Shown in pieces: positions 2,474 to 10,351 of a stretch of DNA of 64,000 bases. The stretch is from Candidatus Nomurabacteria bacterium (GTDB lineage Bacteria; Patescibacteriota; Minisyncoccia; Phycocordibacterales; CALRBL01), in the NCBI GenBank assembly GCA_963834935.1, contig CAWIDS010000001.1:1338-65337 (forward strand), in the 5' to 3' direction. The notes under the pieces were generated by a model. The model was not told the DNA's origin. It saw only the letters and a list, made by a program, of their open reading frames with translations, and ran no database searches. Every line of letters starts with the position of its first letter. Position 1 is the first letter of the stretch. The position numbers and the translations under genes were made by a program.

Positions 2474-3313
2474 ATGAACAAGAATCGTATCGGAATGTGT
2501 CAATGGTTTCATTTCAAGGAGTATGAGAGAGCACAACGTGCCGTATCTCACCTCGAAGATCTCGGGGTCAAGCATCTTCGGATGGATGTTTCGTGGGCCG
2601 ATTATTTTCGCTCCGATGGCCCAGAGTGGTACAACTGGCTTTTCAAAATGCTCGGCACGAAATTCAAACTTTTGGTATGTCTGTGGCACACACCCCCATC
2701 TATTTCAAGGAACGGCAAACCGAACGGTCCGCCATTTCCCTCCAAACTCGCTTACTTCCAGGATCTTGTCCGACAAGTCATTGAGCAGTACGGAGAATAT
2801 ATCGAAGCAGTTGAGCTTTGGAACGAGCCCAACAACCGCTTAAAATGGGACTTCAGTACATTTGACCCGCATTGGAGCTGGTTGGATGAAATGATTCTAA
2901 GAGGTGCCAAGCAGGCAAAAACGATGGGAATGACCACTGTCTTTGGGGGGATCAGTCCTATTAACGGCGGATTTCTGAGACAATTTCAAAAGTCATTGTC
3001 GTTTATCGATATAATTGGCATTCATGCTTTTCCCGGCCAATGGAATGAAGCTTCGGGATGGCAAGGATGGACAGGTGTCGAAAGGCATATCCTTCAAGCA
3101 GCTGGCGGACGGCGCGTATGGGTAACGGAGTCAGGTCTAGCGGCGAAACCGGACAAAAGCGATGAGCTTAAACTTCAGCGAAAACAATTTGAGGAGACGA
3201 TTGATACAGCCTATCTCTTGGCGCATCCTCTTCAGTCGAAATTTCAAATGGTGGTGACATTGGTAATCCTCAACGCTTTAACTATCATTCTTTTGTCTTT
3301 CGCATTCAAATAG
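2474..3313 (+). CDS. Glycoside hydrolase, clan GH-A (TIM barrel) type.
   Basis: The RBS AAAGGAG sits 7 nt upstream. Motifs ELWNEPN (acid/base Glu) and VWVTESG (nucleophile Glu). Unusual hydrophobic C-terminal tail. Confidence 0.6.
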   Translation: MNKNRIGMCQWFHFKEYERAQRAVSHLEDLGVKHLRMDVSWADYFRSDGPEWYNWLFKMLGTKFKLLVCLWHTPPSISRNGKPNGPPFPSKLAYFQDLVRQVIEQYGEYIEAVELWNEPNNRLKWDFSTFDPHWSWLDEMILRGAKQAKTMGMTTVFGGISPINGGFLRQFQKSLSFIDIIGIHAFPGQWNEASGWQGWTGVERHILQAAGGRRVWVTESGLAAKPDKSDELKLQRKQFEETIDTAYLLAHPLQSKFQMVVTLVILNALTIILLSFAFK

Positions 3314-3401
3314 ACATTTACTTAAATAAATTGTAGTGTATGTTCACTCTGACATTCCGTCAGAGTGTATTAACAACAAAACACCAGACCTTTAATCAAC
3401 A

Positions 3402-3839
3402 ATGAGTTATTCTTTATTTCCTGTCAGCGAACCTGACACCTACCCGATCTTCTCCGAGCAAAAGCCGTCAGACATGTTCGCCGAAATCATTTGTAACGGC
3501 GGTACTCCGGTGAGCGACTGCGAGCTCTGTGGCAGAACGCACTTCAATGAAACCGGCGAGTACATGGACAAAGGAGAACTTGAAAAACTCCTCGAAAGAC
3601 AACAGGCCGAGCCGGATAAATATGTTGCCCATGATAATCAGGTCTATCATGGCGACTTTGACAGCAAGCGGGTCGTCTGGGATTGCCCTTGTAACGGCCT
3701 GCGTCTTTACGAGGAGATGTTGTGGGGCGAACGACATATGATCTCCCAGTACATCTGTGCCAGAGCCGAAGCGAACTTGGATGTTGCCCAACACGATGCC
3801 GAAGCAGCGACGGCGACCAAGGAAGCCTTGGAATCCTAA
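3402..3839 (+). CDS. Cys-rich hypothetical protein, possibly a Zn-ribbon protein.
   Basis: ORF of 145 aa with CELCGRTH and DCPCNG motifs. GC-rich. Confidence 0.5.
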   Translation: MSYSLFPVSEPDTYPIFSEQKPSDMFAEIICNGGTPVSDCELCGRTHFNETGEYMDKGELEKLLERQQAEPDKYVAHDNQVYHGDFDSKRVVWDCPCNGLRLYEEMLWGERHMISQYICARAEANLDVAQHDAEAATATKEALES

Positions 3840-3867
3840 CGACTCTCAATTCTTGACCTGATACCAG

Positions 3868-3897
3868 CTCTACACAGTGTGTGGGGCTTTTTTATTC
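3868..3897 (+). terminator. Probable terminator with an imperfect hairpin.
   Basis: CACAGTGTG palindrome and GGGG, then CTTTTTTATT. The tail matches the conserved terminator tail used elsewhere in the window. Confidence 0.4.
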
Positions 3898-3948
3898 ACT
3901 GCTTATGAGCAAAGTCACGGGGCTACCAGACTCTGATATAATAAGAAT

Positions 3949-4599
3949 ATGAGCAATGAATTGCCGGAAAAGGCCATTGAAGCTGAAAAAGAAGCTACTT
4001 TGGAATTATTCAGCTTGAACGAAGAACAATCGGCTGAATTAAAAAAGCGGATCGAGAAATTCCACGGGCTTGTCCGAATCTTCATACATCCTGATACTAT
4101 TTCTCCGGATGAATATTCAAAGCAATTTCTGGGATTTGTCATGACAATCTCATCTGAAAATTCACCTCCGATTATTTTCTTGGAAGACCACAATCATGTA
4201 GAAGGTTTCAAGGAAGACTTTGAACTGATGAGGGATAAATTACCTAATCCGATTTATTTCGCTGAAACGTTACCACGATTTCCCTACCCGATCTTCCCCG
4301 GTGATACGGTTCCAAATGAAATAGTAGAATTCAGGGAAATGCCTCTTGAACAGCAAAAAAACGCAGTTAAGGGCATGAGAACGCTTGCGATCATCCTCAG
4401 AAATTTGGGTGTCAAAAAAGTCTTAGTCGGCGGAGCAAACCTTGAAATCGACGATTCCGATAGACTTCAGGAGTGCGTAGGAAATTTCGTTGAATCATTC
4501 AATATGTGCGGGGAATCCGATTTTGATATAAAAGTTTCGAACTTGACCATACCTAAAAACAGAAACGATTTAAGAGGTGTAAGGGATAAATTTTTGTAA
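3949..4599 (+). CDS. Hypothetical protein.
   Basis: ORF of 216 aa with no recognised motif. Starts after the terminator of the previous gene. Confidence 0.5.
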   Translation: MSNELPEKAIEAEKEATLELFSLNEEQSAELKKRIEKFHGLVRIFIHPDTISPDEYSKQFLGFVMTISSENSPPIIFLEDHNHVEGFKEDFELMRDKLPNPIYFAETLPRFPYPIFPGDTVPNEIVEFREMPLEQQKNAVKGMRTLAIILRNLGVKKVLVGGANLEIDDSDRLQECVGNFVESFNMCGESDFDIKVSNLTIPKNRNDLRGVRDKFL

Positions 4600-4680
4600 A
4601 ACATATGATTTCATATTTCGCTTATGGCCCAAACCAAGATGAGGCTCAAATGAGACCCGAGGCTTTACTTTTAATCCTTC

Positions 4681-5040
4681 TTGCCATATTATGCAAATCG
4701 CTTGCATAATATGAGAACCAACGTATACAAAGGACAGATACTGAAGCTGCTTAAGAAAAAGCATCTTTTGACTATCGCGGAAATTCACAAAGCTGTTCCG
4801 AATGCCGACTATTCCACGGTCTTCCGCAATGTCGAGCAGCTTCTCAAAGGCAAGCAGATCAAGAAAATCATGGTCGACAACCGGTCTATCGCGTACGAGT
4901 TTTCAAAAGACAGTCATGATCATTTTATCTGCAACGATTGCGGAAAGGTCGAATCGATTCACCTGCCCCGCAATTCAATCAAAGACCGCAAGATTGACGA
5001 TATTACCATAAGAGGCAGTTGCGGTAACTGCACAAATTAA
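4681..5040 (+). CDS. Fur-family metalloregulator (Fur/Zur/PerR-like).
   Basis: The ORF track starts at TTG 4681; the ATG at 4711 is the likely start. Winged-helix N-terminal domain, then HDHFICNDCGKV and a C-terminal CGNC. The next gene begins 1 nt after the stop. Confidence 0.8.
   Translation: MPYYANRLHNMRTNVYKGQILKLLKKKHLLTIAEIHKAVPNADYSTVFRNVEQLLKGKQIKKIMVDNRSIAYEFSKDSHDHFICNDCGKVESIHLPRNSIKDRKIDDITIRGSCGNCTN
4685..4713. promoter_or_regulatory. Perfect 12-5-12 palindrome (candidate operator) whose last triplet is the ATG of the Fur-family gene.
   Basis: CATATTATGCAA-atcgc-TTGCATAATATG. The two arms are exact reverse complements. Confidence 0.6.
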
Positions 5041-5041
5041 T

Positions 5042-5995
5042 ATGAGAATAGCTTTCGTAGGAAAAGGCGGATCAGGCAAAAGCACCCTCTCGGCGTCGTT
5101 CGCTTCATATCTCTCAAAACATACCGGCAAGCCGGTGACCGTCTTTGATGCGGACATTAATATCCACGTGCCAGAGCTTCTCGGCTTCGGTGTCATACCT
5201 TTTGAAAAGCACCTCTCGAATCCGAAGGTGTCGAAAGTGATCAAGAAGTGGCTGCTCGGCAGCAACGATATGAGCGACTCCGGCGCATTTCGCAAGTCTA
5301 CGCCACCGACACGCAAATCGAACATCATTAAGATAGAATCAATCGGAAAAACACCTGTCGGAACATTTGGGTCACATGATGGAAATCTTTCGATCTTCGC
5401 CGTTGGGACATATCAGGATGAAGACATCGGGGCAAGCTGTTATCACAATAATCTCGCTATACTTGAAAACATCTTAAGCCATACGGACGACAAGAATGGT
5501 TATGTGGTAGCTGACATGGTCGCGGGAGTAGACTCATTCGCTGGGACTCTCCATGCGCAGTTTGATCTTACCTGCCTGATAGTAGAACCGACGGTGCGAA
5601 GCATTGAGGTCTATGCCAAATACATGGAGCTTGCGAGGGAGGCTGGCGTCGCTGACAGTCTTCGCGTCATCGGGAACAAGATAAGAAGCGAGAAAGACAA
5701 AGACTTCATTCGTGCCCATATTCCACCGGAAGAAATCATCGGATACTTCACTGATGATGATCATATCCGAGATATTGATCAGGACGGTAGAGCGCTTTCA
5801 ATATCAAAGCTTAATCAAAGCAATCAGGAACTATTGAAACAGGTTCTAGAAGCCGCAGACTCTTTGCCTGATAATCGTGACACGAGGCTCAAGAAAATCT
5901 GGGACTTGCATAAGAAATATGTGGCGCAGGCCTTTGTAAAAGACAAATTTGGAGACCTGACAGATCAAATAGATTATGACTTCACATTCCGATAA
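5042..5995 (+). CDS. CooC-family (MinD/ParA-class) P-loop ATPase, metallochaperone-like.
   Basis: Deviant Walker A GKGGSGKST and a DADINIH segment. CooC-like blocks FAVGTYQDEDIGASCYHNNLAILENIL, LTCLIVEPT and VIGNKIR. The usual C-x-C position reads C-Y-H. Confidence 0.8.
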   Translation: MRIAFVGKGGSGKSTLSASFASYLSKHTGKPVTVFDADINIHVPELLGFGVIPFEKHLSNPKVSKVIKKWLLGSNDMSDSGAFRKSTPPTRKSNIIKIESIGKTPVGTFGSHDGNLSIFAVGTYQDEDIGASCYHNNLAILENILSHTDDKNGYVVADMVAGVDSFAGTLHAQFDLTCLIVEPTVRSIEVYAKYMELAREAGVADSLRVIGNKIRSEKDKDFIRAHIPPEEIIGYFTDDDHIRDIDQDGRALSISKLNQSNQELLKQVLEAADSLPDNRDTRLKKIWDLHKKYVAQAFVKDKFGDLTDQIDYDFTFR

Positions 5996-7484
5996 CAATA
6001 TTAAAAACCTCCCCGATGACGGCAAGCCGTCTTTGCTTGAGACGGAAAAAAGCAAACTGGTATACGCCGGCCCGGCTTCGATTTTGGATTATCTCAATCC
6101 CGACAATACTCCCTACACGCCGCTAATAGAAATTCCAGATCATCTTAATCCGTATCTCAAAAGCGGGGTGAGGATCTTTGCGAAGCTCATGAATGCGCTG
6201 CCTCTCGCAAACGTGAAGTCGCTTCCGGCGTACAACATGCTTCTCGATAGGAAGGAAAAAGGACCGCTGCCGGACACCATCATCGAGAACTCATCAGGTA
6301 ACACGGCATTTTCTCTTGCGGTCATTGCCCGGCTTATGGGCATACCACATACAAAAGCTGTCGTCTCTCACGAGGTAAGCCGCGGCAAACTCAACATACT
6401 GCGTCTTCTCGGTACCGAAATAATCGTCAATGACGAGCCCATTTGTCCTGATCCAAGCGATCCAACGAGCGGAATCTACAAAGCAAAGGAATGGTCAAAA
6501 GAGAACGGCTGGTTCAACCCCGGACAATACGACAACGAAGCTAATCCTGCCGCTCACTACAAATGGACAGGTCCGCAGATATGGGACCAGACAAAAAGTA
6601 AAATTTCCCTGCTCTCCACCGGTCTTGGAACTACGGGCTCAGCCGTGGGAATCGGTACATTCCTCAAGGAGAAAAATAAAGACATTAAAATTCTTGGCGT
6701 AACGCGCATCGTTAATAATCAAATACCCGGTGTTAGAACTGCCAGCCTTCTCAAAGAGGTCGCTTTTGATTGGCGATCGGTGATCGATTTTCAAGAAGAA
6801 GTCGGCACAACTGAATCGTTCAAGATGTCCATGGAGCTATGCCGGTCCGGATTATTCGTCGGACCAAGCTCAGGCTTTGCCTTGGTAGGACTTTTGAATC
6901 ATATCGCAAAGCAAAAGCTCTCCGGTGAAGAAAAAATAGCCGTCTTCATCTGTCCCGACAGTCCGTTTCCCTATATCGACGAGTATTTTCAATATCTTGA
7001 TCCCGCAGTTTTCCCAGAAATCCAGAATGAGCGACTGCTTAAGGAAAAGATTCAGATCAGCCCGTCGCAAAGTGCCGCCATCAAAGAGCTTGGCCCGCTG
7101 GAAGTGTTTGACCTTATTTTTACCGGCACACCCGATAAAGTCTGGGAAAAAATAGGAAACAAGCAAGAAGCAGATATCAAAAAAGGATTCGCTGTGATTG
7201 ATGTCCGTAACGAAGGAGAGTATGAAGACCACCACATCCCGGAATCGATCCATGTTCCCTTTCATGAACTTGATGAATTCCTCAAGAAAAACAAGACGAG
7301 CCTCGCCAGAAATGAAGCGGTCATTTTCGTCTGCAAACATGGCAATGCAAGCCGGCTCGCTGCTTACAAAGCGGAGGAACTTGGTCTCAAACCGATCAGC
7401 CTCAAAGGCGGCGATGCCGAATGGAGCAGGCTTGATCTGCCAAGAATCCGTGCTGAGAAATGCATCATCAAATTCGATTTATGA
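5976..7484 (+). CDS. Cysteine-synthase-family PLP enzyme (fold type II) fused to a C-terminal rhodanese domain.
   Basis: PLP-lysine region ANVKSLPAYNM. Glycine loop TGLGTTGSAVGIG. C-terminal rhodanese with active-site loop CKHGNAS. Overlaps the previous gene by 20 nt. Confidence 0.8.
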   Translation: MTSHSDNNIKNLPDDGKPSLLETEKSKLVYAGPASILDYLNPDNTPYTPLIEIPDHLNPYLKSGVRIFAKLMNALPLANVKSLPAYNMLLDRKEKGPLPDTIIENSSGNTAFSLAVIARLMGIPHTKAVVSHEVSRGKLNILRLLGTEIIVNDEPICPDPSDPTSGIYKAKEWSKENGWFNPGQYDNEANPAAHYKWTGPQIWDQTKSKISLLSTGLGTTGSAVGIGTFLKEKNKDIKILGVTRIVNNQIPGVRTASLLKEVAFDWRSVIDFQEEVGTTESFKMSMELCRSGLFVGPSSGFALVGLLNHIAKQKLSGEEKIAVFICPDSPFPYIDEYFQYLDPAVFPEIQNERLLKEKIQISPSQSAAIKELGPLEVFDLIFTGTPDKVWEKIGNKQEADIKKGFAVIDVRNEGEYEDHHIPESIHVPFHELDEFLKKNKTSLARNEAVIFVCKHGNASRLAAYKAEELGLKPISLKGGDAEWSRLDLPRIRAEKCIIKFDL

Positions 7485-7505
7485 TATTGAATTTTTACGT
7501 TTTCA

Positions 7506-7760
7506 TTGGACGGAATCTATGAAAGCATGACACCCGAAGAAGCCCATGCGCACTTCGTAAAGATGGGAATGTTTGGCGCAAACGGGCCGTGGGCTCCACG
7601 CGAGCCTGTCGAGCCCGAAGGCTTGAATGGACTCATCGGCAAAGACAAGGTCTTCAAAGCCTTCCTGCTCGACAAAGGTCTGCCAGGAAATATGGTCGAC
7701 CTCGTCCTTAGTGGGAACGCCCTCCGATTCCTGAAGCGTGCACTTCGCTTAACCTACTAG
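7506..7760 (+). CDS. Small GC-rich ORF; possibly a remnant of an amidohydrolase C-terminus.
   Basis: Weak resemblance of DLVLSGNALRFL to amidohydrolase C-termini. No SD. A terminator follows. Confidence 0.3.
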   Translation: MDGIYESMTPEEAHAHFVKMGMFGANGPWAPREPVEPEGLNGLIGKDKVFKAFLLDKGLPGNMVDLVLSGNALRFLKRALRLTY

Positions 7761-7779: not shown

Positions 7780-7823
7780 GCAAGTAATTGATTACCCGGT
7801 CAATTGCTTGCAGTTTTTTTATT
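7780..7823. terminator. Bidirectional rho-independent terminator between convergent genes.
   Basis: Hairpin GCAAGTAATTG...CAATTGCTTGC followed by TTTTTTTATT. Confidence 0.6.
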
Positions 7824-9652: not shown

Positions 9653-10351
9653 TTGAAAAATCTAAAAGAGATAAACGCGCAGCTTCAGGATGCTGACCCC
9701 CGTGAGATAGTCACATGGGCTCATGAGACCTTCGGAAATAGCCTGGCCATGACTTCGGGTTTCGGGGCCGAATCGGCCCTGACAATCAATCTAGTTACGC
9801 TTCGTGTCCCGGAGATTCCTGTGATCGTCATTGATACCGGATACCTCTTTCCAGAGACGCACGCCTTTATGGAGAAGCTCAGGAAGAGGTTCAGCCTCAA
9901 CCTGAAGACCTACTTCCCTTTGCTTAGTCCGTTCGCCATGGAAAACCAATATGGCAAACTATGGAAGCAAGGCAAGCGAGGTCTGGAATGCTACAACCGG
10001 ATGAGAAAAGTGGAGCCAATGGAACGGGCACTCCGCGAACTCGGTGTCAAAGCCTGGATTTCAGGATTAAGGGCAGACCAGACAGCGCTACGTTCCAAAT
10101 TGAAGATAGTCGAAAGAAGATCTGATGGAATATACAAGATCCATCCCATCATCAAATGGACGGCGGAGGAAATCCGCCAATACTTCTTCCTTTACGACCT
10201 GCCCTATCATCCTTTAGTTGAAAAAGGCTATTCGTCTATCGGCGATTGGCATTCGACGCTTCCCTCAAAAGACCGTTCCGGACGTTTCAACGGGATCAAG
10301 GAAGAATGTGGGCTGCACGAAGAATTATGCGGAGATAACAGCGAGGTATAA
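9653..10351 (+). CDS. cysH: Phosphoadenosine-phosphosulfate / adenylylsulfate reductase (thioredoxin-dependent), CysH.
   Basis: TTG start with AGGAG 7 nt upstream. PAPS-reductase fold. C-terminal catalytic ECGLH motif. Confidence 0.85.
   Translation: MKNLKEINAQLQDADPREIVTWAHETFGNSLAMTSGFGAESALTINLVTLRVPEIPVIVIDTGYLFPETHAFMEKLRKRFSLNLKTYFPLLSPFAMENQYGKLWKQGKRGLECYNRMRKVEPMERALRELGVKAWISGLRADQTALRSKLKIVERRSDGIYKIHPIIKWTAEEIRQYFFLYDLPYHPLVEKGYSSIGDWHSTLPSKDRSGRFNGIKEECGLHEELCGDNSEV

Follow-up and report, generated by a model that had tools for sequence, protein, structure and literature searches.

The DNA analysed here is a stretch of 64,000 nucleotides from a Candidatus Nomurabacteria contig (CAWIDS010000001.1, positions 1,338 to 65,337), referred to below as the window, and this work concerns a small operon that it carries. 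Three genes follow each other head to tail on the + strand, coding for a Fur-family regulator, a MinD/ParA-class ATPase and an enzyme that joins a pyridoxal phosphate (PLP) domain of fold type II to a rhodanese domain. The regulator gene extends from an ATG at 4711 to position 5040, giving a protein of 109 aa from this conserved start, although its open reading frame (ORF) is readable from a TTG at 4681. The ATPase gene (5042-5995, 317 aa) begins one base past the regulator stop codon, and the PLP/rhodanese gene (5976-7484, 502 aa) overlaps the end of the ATPase gene by 20 nt. The ORF list thus agrees with a preliminary description of this DNA, which had reported three tightly linked genes on one strand with a 1-nt gap and a 20-nt overlap. 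Pfam searches supported the proposed families for the regulator (FUR, PF01475, E-value 4e-13, 50 bits for a cutoff of 23.1) and for both parts of the enzyme (PALP, 4.3e-46; Rhodanese, PF00581, 2.8e-14), and placed the ATPase in the generic CbiA/ParA P-loop class and nothing finer.

The start of the operon is covered by a perfect palindrome, CATATTATGCAA-ATCGC-TTGCATAATATG (4685-4713, no strand assigned), found by both sequence inspection and a repeat finder, with two 12-nt arms that are 100% complementary and separated by 5 nt. The regulator start codon had been noticed to lie inside this palindrome; in fact the ATG at 4711-4713 forms the final three bases of the right arm. The palindrome also overlies a promoter-like site on the + strand (4681-4710) made of a -35 element TTGCCA (4681-4686), an 18-nt spacer and a -10 element CATAAT (4705-4710), a pair that matches the consensus at 10/12 positions, a match which by itself is no evidence of function. 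At the other end, a hairpin with a 14-pair stem followed by AGTTTTTTTA (7780-7811, +) resembles a terminator and is likely to mark the end of the transcription unit. An 84-aa ORF located between the enzyme gene and this hairpin (7506-7760, +) has no family match and no homologue in any related locus; it may be co-transcribed with the operon, yet lies outside the conserved module.

Related loci were collected by scanning genome collections for two exact peptides that are invariant in the ATPase, IGASCYHN being one of them. This yielded 57 distinct loci, by a procedure that cannot show the absence of the family outside the Candidate Phyla Radiation (CPR, or Patescibacteria). Taking the taxon labels of contigs from metagenome-assembled genomes (MAGs) as deposited, nearly all these loci are labelled as CPR (Paceibacteria, Saccharibacteria-labelled MAGs, Dojka-, Roizman-, Uhr- and Liptonbacteria, and SR1), and the few that bear other labels are on small contigs. 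Database searches retrieved 1,639 relatives of the ATPase at E<=1e-3, the best 120 of which are 55-100% identical, and the relatives that carry a name are labelled Paceibacteria/Patescibacteria or 'CO dehydrogenase maturation factor' (COG3640). ORFs were called and clustered in a set of 61 loci that counts the window and one duplicate genome. These calls were made with a longest-ORF script, so that gene starts are only approximate and genes look fragmented where UGA is recoded (L043, L047-L049).

A PLP/rhodanese gene lies directly downstream of the ATPase gene in 52 of the 61 loci, and a Fur-family gene is found within three genes of it in 43, where it is divergent or, as in the window, lies just before the operon genes on the same strand. 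The trio is therefore a genuine operon kept across Patescibacteria, and the neighbourhood conservation in CPR relatives that the preliminary description had proposed to check is indeed observed. The operon occurs throughout Patescibacteria and in at least one organism that is apparently Gram-negative (L190, see below). In 17 loci it is accompanied by a 388-aa YibE/F membrane protein (PF07907); COG0523 was considered as the identity of this common neighbour and rejected, COG0523 genes being present in fewer loci. One MAG with a small genome, JBILHA01, has two contigs (L010 and L050) with diverged ATPase-PLP/rhodanese modules, whose ATPases are 73% and 44% identical to that of the window; in L050, an exact copy of the operator core described below is found just upstream of the ATPase gene.

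In the other loci, the palindromes that precede the operon have a common core, ATGCAA-N5-TTGCAT, which in the window corresponds to ATGCAA at 4691-4696 and TTGCAT at 4702-4707. Exact TGCAA-N5-TTGCA boxes are present in 34/60 loci for a chance expectation of about 0.02 sites per locus, most other loci have a box with one mismatch, and two tandem boxes are often seen. Nearly all the exact boxes directly precede the first gene of the operon or lie between divergent genes. Perfect palindromes with 12-nt arms are seldom produced by chance: 19 of 20 first-order Markov shuffles of the window contained none. Because the same core recurs upstream of the homologous operon in many loci, the palindrome is, on comparative grounds, a genuine operator.

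We searched metagenomes for one exact 17-mer version of this box, ATGCAAATTACTTGCAT, and obtained at least 120 loci. Among the matches listed, 31 loci have a Fur-family, zinc-type or module gene directly at the box: Fur-family genes in 13 loci, ZIP transporters in 6, ZnuA in 6, a MerC-like membrane protein in 5, ZigA-like COG0523 in 4, His-rich proteins in 4 and the CooC-like ATPase of the operon in 3. Some loci combine several of these genes. In L157 a box separates a ZIP gene from the divergent ATPase gene. In L186 an exact box precedes a ZIP-cobW pair and adjoins a box with one mismatch that precedes, in the opposite direction, an operon of ATPase, decarboxylase, PLP/rhodanese and Fur-family genes. 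In L189 two boxes overlap a TTGACA/TATACT promoter before the ATPase operon, which is divergent from a YibE/F gene, and a further exact box precedes a Fur-ZnuA-ABC gene group. In L001/L002 and L015, the operon starts with a COG0523/cobW-type gene preceded by the box, instead of the regulator gene; of these proteins, that of L001/L002 was scanned and scores 585.6 bits against NF038288 (ZigA) for a cutoff of 600.

Zur is known to control COG0523 genes, znuABC and gene clusters for metallophores, and in some cases a promoter carries two boxes (PMC6103462). The CPR boxes resemble those of Zur regulons containing COG0523 proteins (ZigA/YciC/ZagA), in which palindromes, often two per promoter, likewise cover the promoters of ZnuABC, ZIP and COG0523 genes. 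They differ from the described Zur boxes (7-1-7, 9-1-9 or 23-bp) by their 6-5-6 layout, and the chaperone-like protein of the operon is a MinD/CooC-class ATPase and not a G3E GTPase. Since ZIP, ZnuA/znuABC and ZigA-like COG0523 genes are preceded by this box too, in some cases within a single locus, the regulator probably acts as a Zur and the operon probably belongs to a zinc-starvation regulon. This label comes from the content of the regulon: for the family the case is strong, for the window it is indirect. In the preliminary description the genes had been presented as a Fur-regulated metal module; the family holds, whereas an iron-responsive Fur gives way to a Zur-like protein.

The regulator proteins have a conserved MRTN start, conserved H79 and H81, invariant C84, C87 and C114, and a C117 conserved in at least 90% of sequences, so that the CxxC...CxxC structural zinc site is present in the family alignment. 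In the clade of the window (window, L003, L004, L007, L012 and L014), the regulator is only about 109 aa long; its dimerisation domain has a deletion of ~13-25 residues, and HHH(H) before the first CxxC is replaced by HDH. We tried to assign the metal by homology and gave this up, as neither NCBIfam nor PDB profile searches separate Fur, PerR, Zur and Nur: with a profile built from 32 homologues, structures of all four were matched at 1e-30 to 1e-14 with no discrimination.

The third gene product was then compared with known PLP enzymes. Its PLP domain covers residues ~29-355 (nt ~6060-7040), with K81, SSGNT at 106-110, GTTG at 218-221, PGVR at 251-254 and S298, and its rhodanese domain covers residues ~387-485 (nt ~7134-7430), with the catalytic C453. 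By PDB sequence search, the best match was 8H4H/8H4Q (E 1.2e-79, 271 bits), an entry entitled 'Rhodanese domain-containing protein' that corresponds to the aspergillomarasmine A (AMA) synthase of Aspergillus, versus 1e-31 for the best cystathionine beta-synthase (CBS), CysK or CysM structure (113 bits for CBS and ~100 bits for CysK/CysM). An exhaustive search of representative sequences produced only 174 clusters below 1e-30, and the non-CPR homologues identifiable by name are fungal PLP/rhodanese proteins from Ascoidea, Puccinia, Mycena, Ophiocordyceps, Colletotrichum and Aspergillus. Active-site motifs common to these and to the CPR enzymes are K81, SSG(N/S)T, GTxG, PGxR254, R290 and GPSSG, of which K81, SSGNT and GTTG are invariant in the CPR enzymes. 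As judged by these similarities, the enzyme belongs to the AMA-synthase subfamily and resembles AMA synthase more closely than it does CysK, CysM, CBS or SbnA. The catalytic Cys of the rhodanese loop, C453-KHGNAS-R, is present in 44/44 CPR proteins versus 4/6 fungal proteins. Two further Cys residues are invariants specific to CPR, C157 of the PLP domain and C496 of the C-terminal tail; the position of C157 is occupied by Q or Y in the six fungal homologues.

The CysK-like label initially given to this protein is thus abandoned in favour of a subfamily that already bears the rhodanese domain in fungi. That the operon could be an ordinary one for cysteine synthesis, with a CysK/CysM enzyme carrying a rhodanese tail and lying by accident beside a regulator and a ParA-like ATPase, agrees with the Joint Genome Institute annotation of homologues as 'cysteine synthase/rhodanese-related sulfurtransferase' and with the cysH-like gene found 2 kb away. 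We give this explanation almost no credence, and it is already largely refuted: NCBIfam scores fall far under the cutoffs (cysKM, 137 vs 344; cysM, 130 vs 394; cysK, 112 vs 351) and the CBS and SbnA thresholds are also missed widely; the Lys motif is NVKSL in place of the SVKDR of CysK/CysM; across CPR the gene stays linked to the ATPase, the regulator and the box; and cysH is not a conserved neighbour.

AMA synthase converts O-phosphoserine and L-Asp into toxin A and AMA, and Fda4, a protein of Fusarium poae described as having 'PLP + RHOD domains', condenses O-phosphoserine with L-Ala (PMC12751119). AMA is a natural Zn2+ metallophore (PMC8829947). These two fungal enzymes come without the Fur-family repressor and the ATPase of the operon, while the window enzyme is bacterial and has the CPR-only C157 and C496. 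Of the functions first envisaged for the module, a metallophore precursor pathway with the Fur-controlled SbnA as precedent comes closest to this picture. In sequence, the enzyme is much nearer to AMA synthase than to SbnA.

Prokaryotic relatives lacking the rhodanese domain are encoded beside a DAO-family oxidase (L183), or beside SerA-like and class-V aminotransferase (SerC-like) genes behind an ABC importer (L181/L185). The adjacent oxidase and rhodanese-less genes of L183 (2632-4980) lie on a phage-like contig with CHAP, PDDEXK and Toprim/DnaB genes; this pair resembles the fungal Fda3/Fda4 route to L-2,3-diaminopropionate and is apparently carried by a phage or mobile element. Among the long homologues of the enzyme, we looked for fusions of the ATPase with the PLP protein and found none. 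The additional N-terminal domains are instead methyltransferase-like in one 765-aa CPR protein (P0123), and related to the fold-I PLP domain of cystathionine-gamma-synthase/beta-lyase in three proteins of ~900 aa (P0163, P0173 and P0272).

An alignment of 14 sequences of the ATPase family revealed as invariant a deviant Walker A motif GKGGxGK[ST] (GKGGSGKST in the window), FDADxN, IGASCYHN and DMVAGVDxFAxTLHxQFD, whose switch II part reads DMVAGVDSF in the window. The family also has a conserved insert containing FRKxTPPTxxS and a C-terminal helical extension of ~70-90 aa. When the family profile was compared with PDB, CooC1 (3KJE) came first with 72.5 bits and MinD next with 32, which supports the assignment as CooC-like where Pfam remains generic; structurally, the window ATPase is no nearer to CooC than to FleN, NifH or MinD. 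CooC1, the nickel insertase of carbon monoxide dehydrogenase (CODH) in Carboxydothermus hydrogenoformans, has in common with the window protein the deviant Walker A, the DMxAGxE/D switch II and the position of the metal site. C133-Y-H135, invariant in 14/14 aligned family members, aligns to C112-x-C114 of CooC1, the Cys-x-Cys nickel/zinc site at the dimer interface. The proposal of a CooC-family ATPase is thus upheld as regards the closest relative, while the CxC motif of CooC is replaced by Cys-Tyr-His. Further differences from CooC1 are the insert, of ~65 residues, the C-terminal extension and the lack of a CODH/acetyl-CoA synthase (ACS) partner: no CODH/ACS gene occurs in the identified neighbour families of the related loci, a statement that covers clustered neighbours and not singletons. 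By analogy with CooC, the window protein would be a dimeric metallochaperone in which the Cys4 interface site for nickel has become a Cys2His2 site suited to zinc, and it would probably spend ATP to pass metal to a partner or to take metal from it. We regard the case for a metallochaperone as evenly balanced.

The kinship with CooC raises the possibility that the operon handles nickel, or another non-zinc metal, with a Nur-like regulator and an ATPase for nickel or cobalt, all the more as ZIP, ZnuA-family and COG0523 proteins can serve other metals. The Streptomyces Nur box, tTGCaa-N5-ttGCAA, has a 6-5-6 layout (PMC2691836). The window core TGCAA-N5-TTGCA is identical to the Nur core, spacing included; the CPR box and that of Streptomyces coelicolor share the inner 5+5 bases and differ in the outermost base of each half-site. 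The closest solved relative of the ATPase is a nickel chaperone, and Ni2+ and Co2+ are among the other divalent metals that AMA binds. We nevertheless set this reading aside as very improbable, since every recurrent gene linked to the box is of zinc type. No nik, sodN/sodF, urease, hydrogenase or CODH gene was present at any box or locus examined, so that the genes behind the CPR box differ from those behind the Nur box; the COG0523 protein scores close to the ZigA zinc-chaperone equivalog; zinc regulons typically include His-rich proteins and ZnuA, both of which are seen at the box; and the Ni-binding CxC of CooC has turned into CxH.

In two divergent CPR lineages, the ATPase gene is followed by a different partner and not by the PLP enzyme (L055:8953-9384 and L058:8948-10102). 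These partner proteins share an N-terminal domain with a TNCCIY motif that belongs to no Pfam family. Such a Cys-rich alternative fits a constant ATPase with varying clients, in which the ATPase would be a metal insertase for the PLP/rhodanese protein or for a variable downstream partner, keeping its client metallated when zinc is short, on the pattern of ZNG1-MetAP1 or CooC-CODH, and with no secreted chelator. The strict adjacency of ATPase and partner in 52/61 loci points the same way, as do the extra invariant Cys residues of the CPR enzymes, which are missing from the fungal enzymes that have no ATPase. Yet we know of no metal requirement among fold-type II PLP beta-replacement enzymes, AMA synthase included, gene fusions that would join the two proteins were not found, and an interaction between ATPase and PLP enzyme is a prediction only. 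This explanation appears decidedly unlikely.

With a divergent ATPase as query, we obtained a second, longer architecture of the operon: ATPase, an ornithine/diaminopimelate (DAP)-decarboxylase-like enzyme (LysA/FslC-like), PLP/rhodanese enzyme and, in most cases, a class-V aminotransferase. It is found in the CPR loci L056, L057 and L186-L189 and also in L190, an apparently Gram-negative, non-CPR organism with contigs of more than 1 Mb, where the gene order differs, the aminotransferase gene coming first. The aminotransferase, encoded directly beside the PLP/rhodanese gene, is SufS-like, with the PLP Lys and a GDHC/GRHC loop containing the catalytic Cys. In L190, OEP/MFP/ABC/FtsX efflux genes of MacAB/OEP type adjoin the operon, and the intergenic region contains AAAATGTTATAAAGTAACATATG, which resembles the proteobacterial Zur box. 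A second, longer CbiA-class ATPase of 354 aa is encoded in this locus (3188-4732, -) between the Fur-family gene and the operon. A beta-replacement enzyme is likewise paired with a decarboxylase in SbnA/SbnH (staphyloferrin B) and in the Zur-regulated AesA/AesC system for [S,S]-ethylenediaminedisuccinic acid (EDDS). Compared with these systems, the window module lacks an SbnB/DAO-type oxidase and a synthetase of the non-ribosomal-peptide-synthetase-independent siderophore (NIS) type, whereas the CPR system adds a rhodanese domain, a SufS-like gene and the CooC-like ATPase.

We tentatively favour the following model, whose compound claim falls somewhat short of an even chance: a Zur-repressed zinc-starvation operon encodes an enzyme making an AMA/toxin-A-like zinc ligand together with a CooC-derived Cys/His metallochaperone. 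With sufficient zinc, a dimer of the Fur-family repressor would sit on the 6-5-6 box over its own promoter and start codon and probably keep the operon off; when zinc falls, the repressor would leave, and the regulator, the ATPase and the PLP/rhodanese enzyme would be made. By analogy with its fungal relatives, the enzyme would most likely form an aminoacrylate from O-phosphoserine (or O-acetylserine) and add to it the amine of an amino acid, the product being an aminopolycarboxylate (toxin-A/AMA-like) zinc chelator. In the longer form, the DAP-decarboxylase-like enzyme would trim this chelator to a ligand of the ethylenediamine type, in parallel with the staphyloferrin B and EDDS pathways. 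Taken separately, a chelator product is again a tentative proposal, slightly on the doubtful side of even.

Several observations weigh against this model. The regulator reaches none of the Fur, PerR or Zur equivalogs of NCBIfam (NF008646 Zur, 20.6 bits vs a cutoff of 167), its sequence alone cannot assign it a metal, and the architecture of its box is that of a nickel regulator. Of the at least 120 loci with the 17-mer, 89 of those listed flank unrelated genes (argC/argG, norB and others); we treated such matches as chance or other lineage-specific sites. The 64-kb window has a single exact TGCAA-N5-TTGCA site, at the operon promoter; it contains no ZIP, ZnuA, COG0523 or YibE/F gene, and it encodes no dedicated exporter or importer. 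AMA synthase functions without any ATPase, so that the chelator model leaves the role of the ATPase unexplained, and in L055/L058 the ATPase has another partner behind it. Lastly, AMA-type chemistry is sulfur-free, yet C453 is conserved throughout the CPR proteins, C157 and C496 are invariant and the longer operons have a SufS-like desulfurase. The rhodanese Cys, the CPR-specific Cys residues and the SufS-like gene together indicate a sulfur transfer for which a chelator gives no explanation.

These last features are accounted for if the module is a sulfur relay, in which a persulfidated rhodanese, charged by thiosulfate or a SufS-like donor, would pass sulfane sulfur via C496/C157 to the aminoacrylate or to Cys133 of the ATPase. 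The output would be a thiol or persulfide ligand, or else a zinc-independent route of sulfur trafficking or metal-sulfur assembly induced by zinc shortage, for example to bypass the Zn-dependent SufU. The ATPase class, which includes the cluster carriers Mrp/NBP35 and NifH, is compatible with such a relay. On the other hand, the PLP domain is far nearer to AMA synthase than to any sulfhydrylase, and fungal AMA synthase and Fda4 perform C-N chemistry with the same rhodanese domain. Cysteine synthesis would be futile if cysteine were the sulfur donor, the ATPase monomer has one Cys and one His in place of a CxxC cluster motif, and the decarboxylase is given no obvious role. We therefore consider a sulfur relay unlikely, and retain the zinc-ligand model.

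Two groups of 17-mer sites at unrelated genes were seen repeatedly. The 17-mer lies between divergent argC and argG genes in near-identical metagenome contigs (L062, L064, L084, L105, L126, L130, L136 and L142), and next to norB in L133, L162 and L167; both are probably unrelated, lineage-specific sites.

We scanned 40 of the 76 window ORFs of at least 70 aa, including nearly all those of at least 250 aa. Those outside the operon are mostly housekeeping genes (penicillin-binding proteins, MreBC, aminoacyl-tRNA synthetases, SecA, UvrA, Obg and similar). None of the 40 scanned ORFs codes for a CODH/ACS, a urease or a hydrogenase, as had been stated from the first inspection of the window, and the Rfam scan of the window detected a tRNA only, with no riboswitch at the operon. 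A PAPS (3'-phosphoadenosine 5'-phosphosulfate) reductase of cysH type (9653-10351, +; NF002537, 253.9 bits) is solitary, the scanned ORFs including no further sulfate-assimilation gene, and it is unlinked to the operon in relatives. This gene, the upstream 145-aa Cys-rich protein (3402-3839), a 216-aa protein and the 84-aa ORF were considered as members of the module and rejected, as none is conserved near the operon elsewhere. The broader sulfur/metal theme that had been built on the Cys-rich protein and cysH is accordingly dropped, neither gene recurring beside the operon in other loci. The window also contains a perfect 636-bp direct repeat (1-636 and 1617-2252), which may continue to the left of the window. 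It includes the 3' portion of a gene resembling those of type IV pilins (1538-2098; N-terminus KKGFTLIELLVVIAIIALL), together with the beginning of an antisense ORF; the repeat either arose by a recent duplication or is an artefact of assembly.

Taken singly, the components are of familiar types: a Fur-family repressor, a Zur regulon, a CooC-class ATPase and an AMA-synthase-type enzyme. Within the incomplete coverage of our literature search, we found no description of the operon itself, of a Cys-x-His variant of CooC, of a Zur box in CPR or of metal-controlled bacterial homologues of AMA synthase. In its most far-reaching form, the proposal is that Patescibacteria and some Gram-negative bacteria make an undescribed zincophore (AMA-like or of ethylenediamine type, possibly containing sulfur) by a minimal Zur-repressed pathway with a CooC-derived Cys2His2 ATPase as obligatory partner; we put this forward as a possibility, and a rather doubtful one. 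If it were true, one to three enzymes would suffice as a route to zinc chelators, and the fungal 'antibiotic adjuvant' chemistry of AMA would have a widespread bacterial counterpart. The bacterial relatives of AMA synthase thereby identified would be of interest, as AMA-type chelators are for the inhibition of metallo-beta-lactamases. The ATPase would be the first zinc chaperone of the MinD/CooC class, or an ATP-dependent step in metallophore handling; with a nickel site rebuilt as Cys/His, it would extend this chaperone class beyond CODH and nickel. A Zur box and part of a zinc regulon would also be defined for a large uncultured radiation. On this far-reaching reading, these ultra-small episymbionts would be active competitors for zinc. 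The genomes of CPR bacteria are tiny, and hardly any secondary metabolism or metal acquisition has been recognised in them; since the module is so widely conserved in spite of this genome size, it likely matters for the CPR lifestyle.

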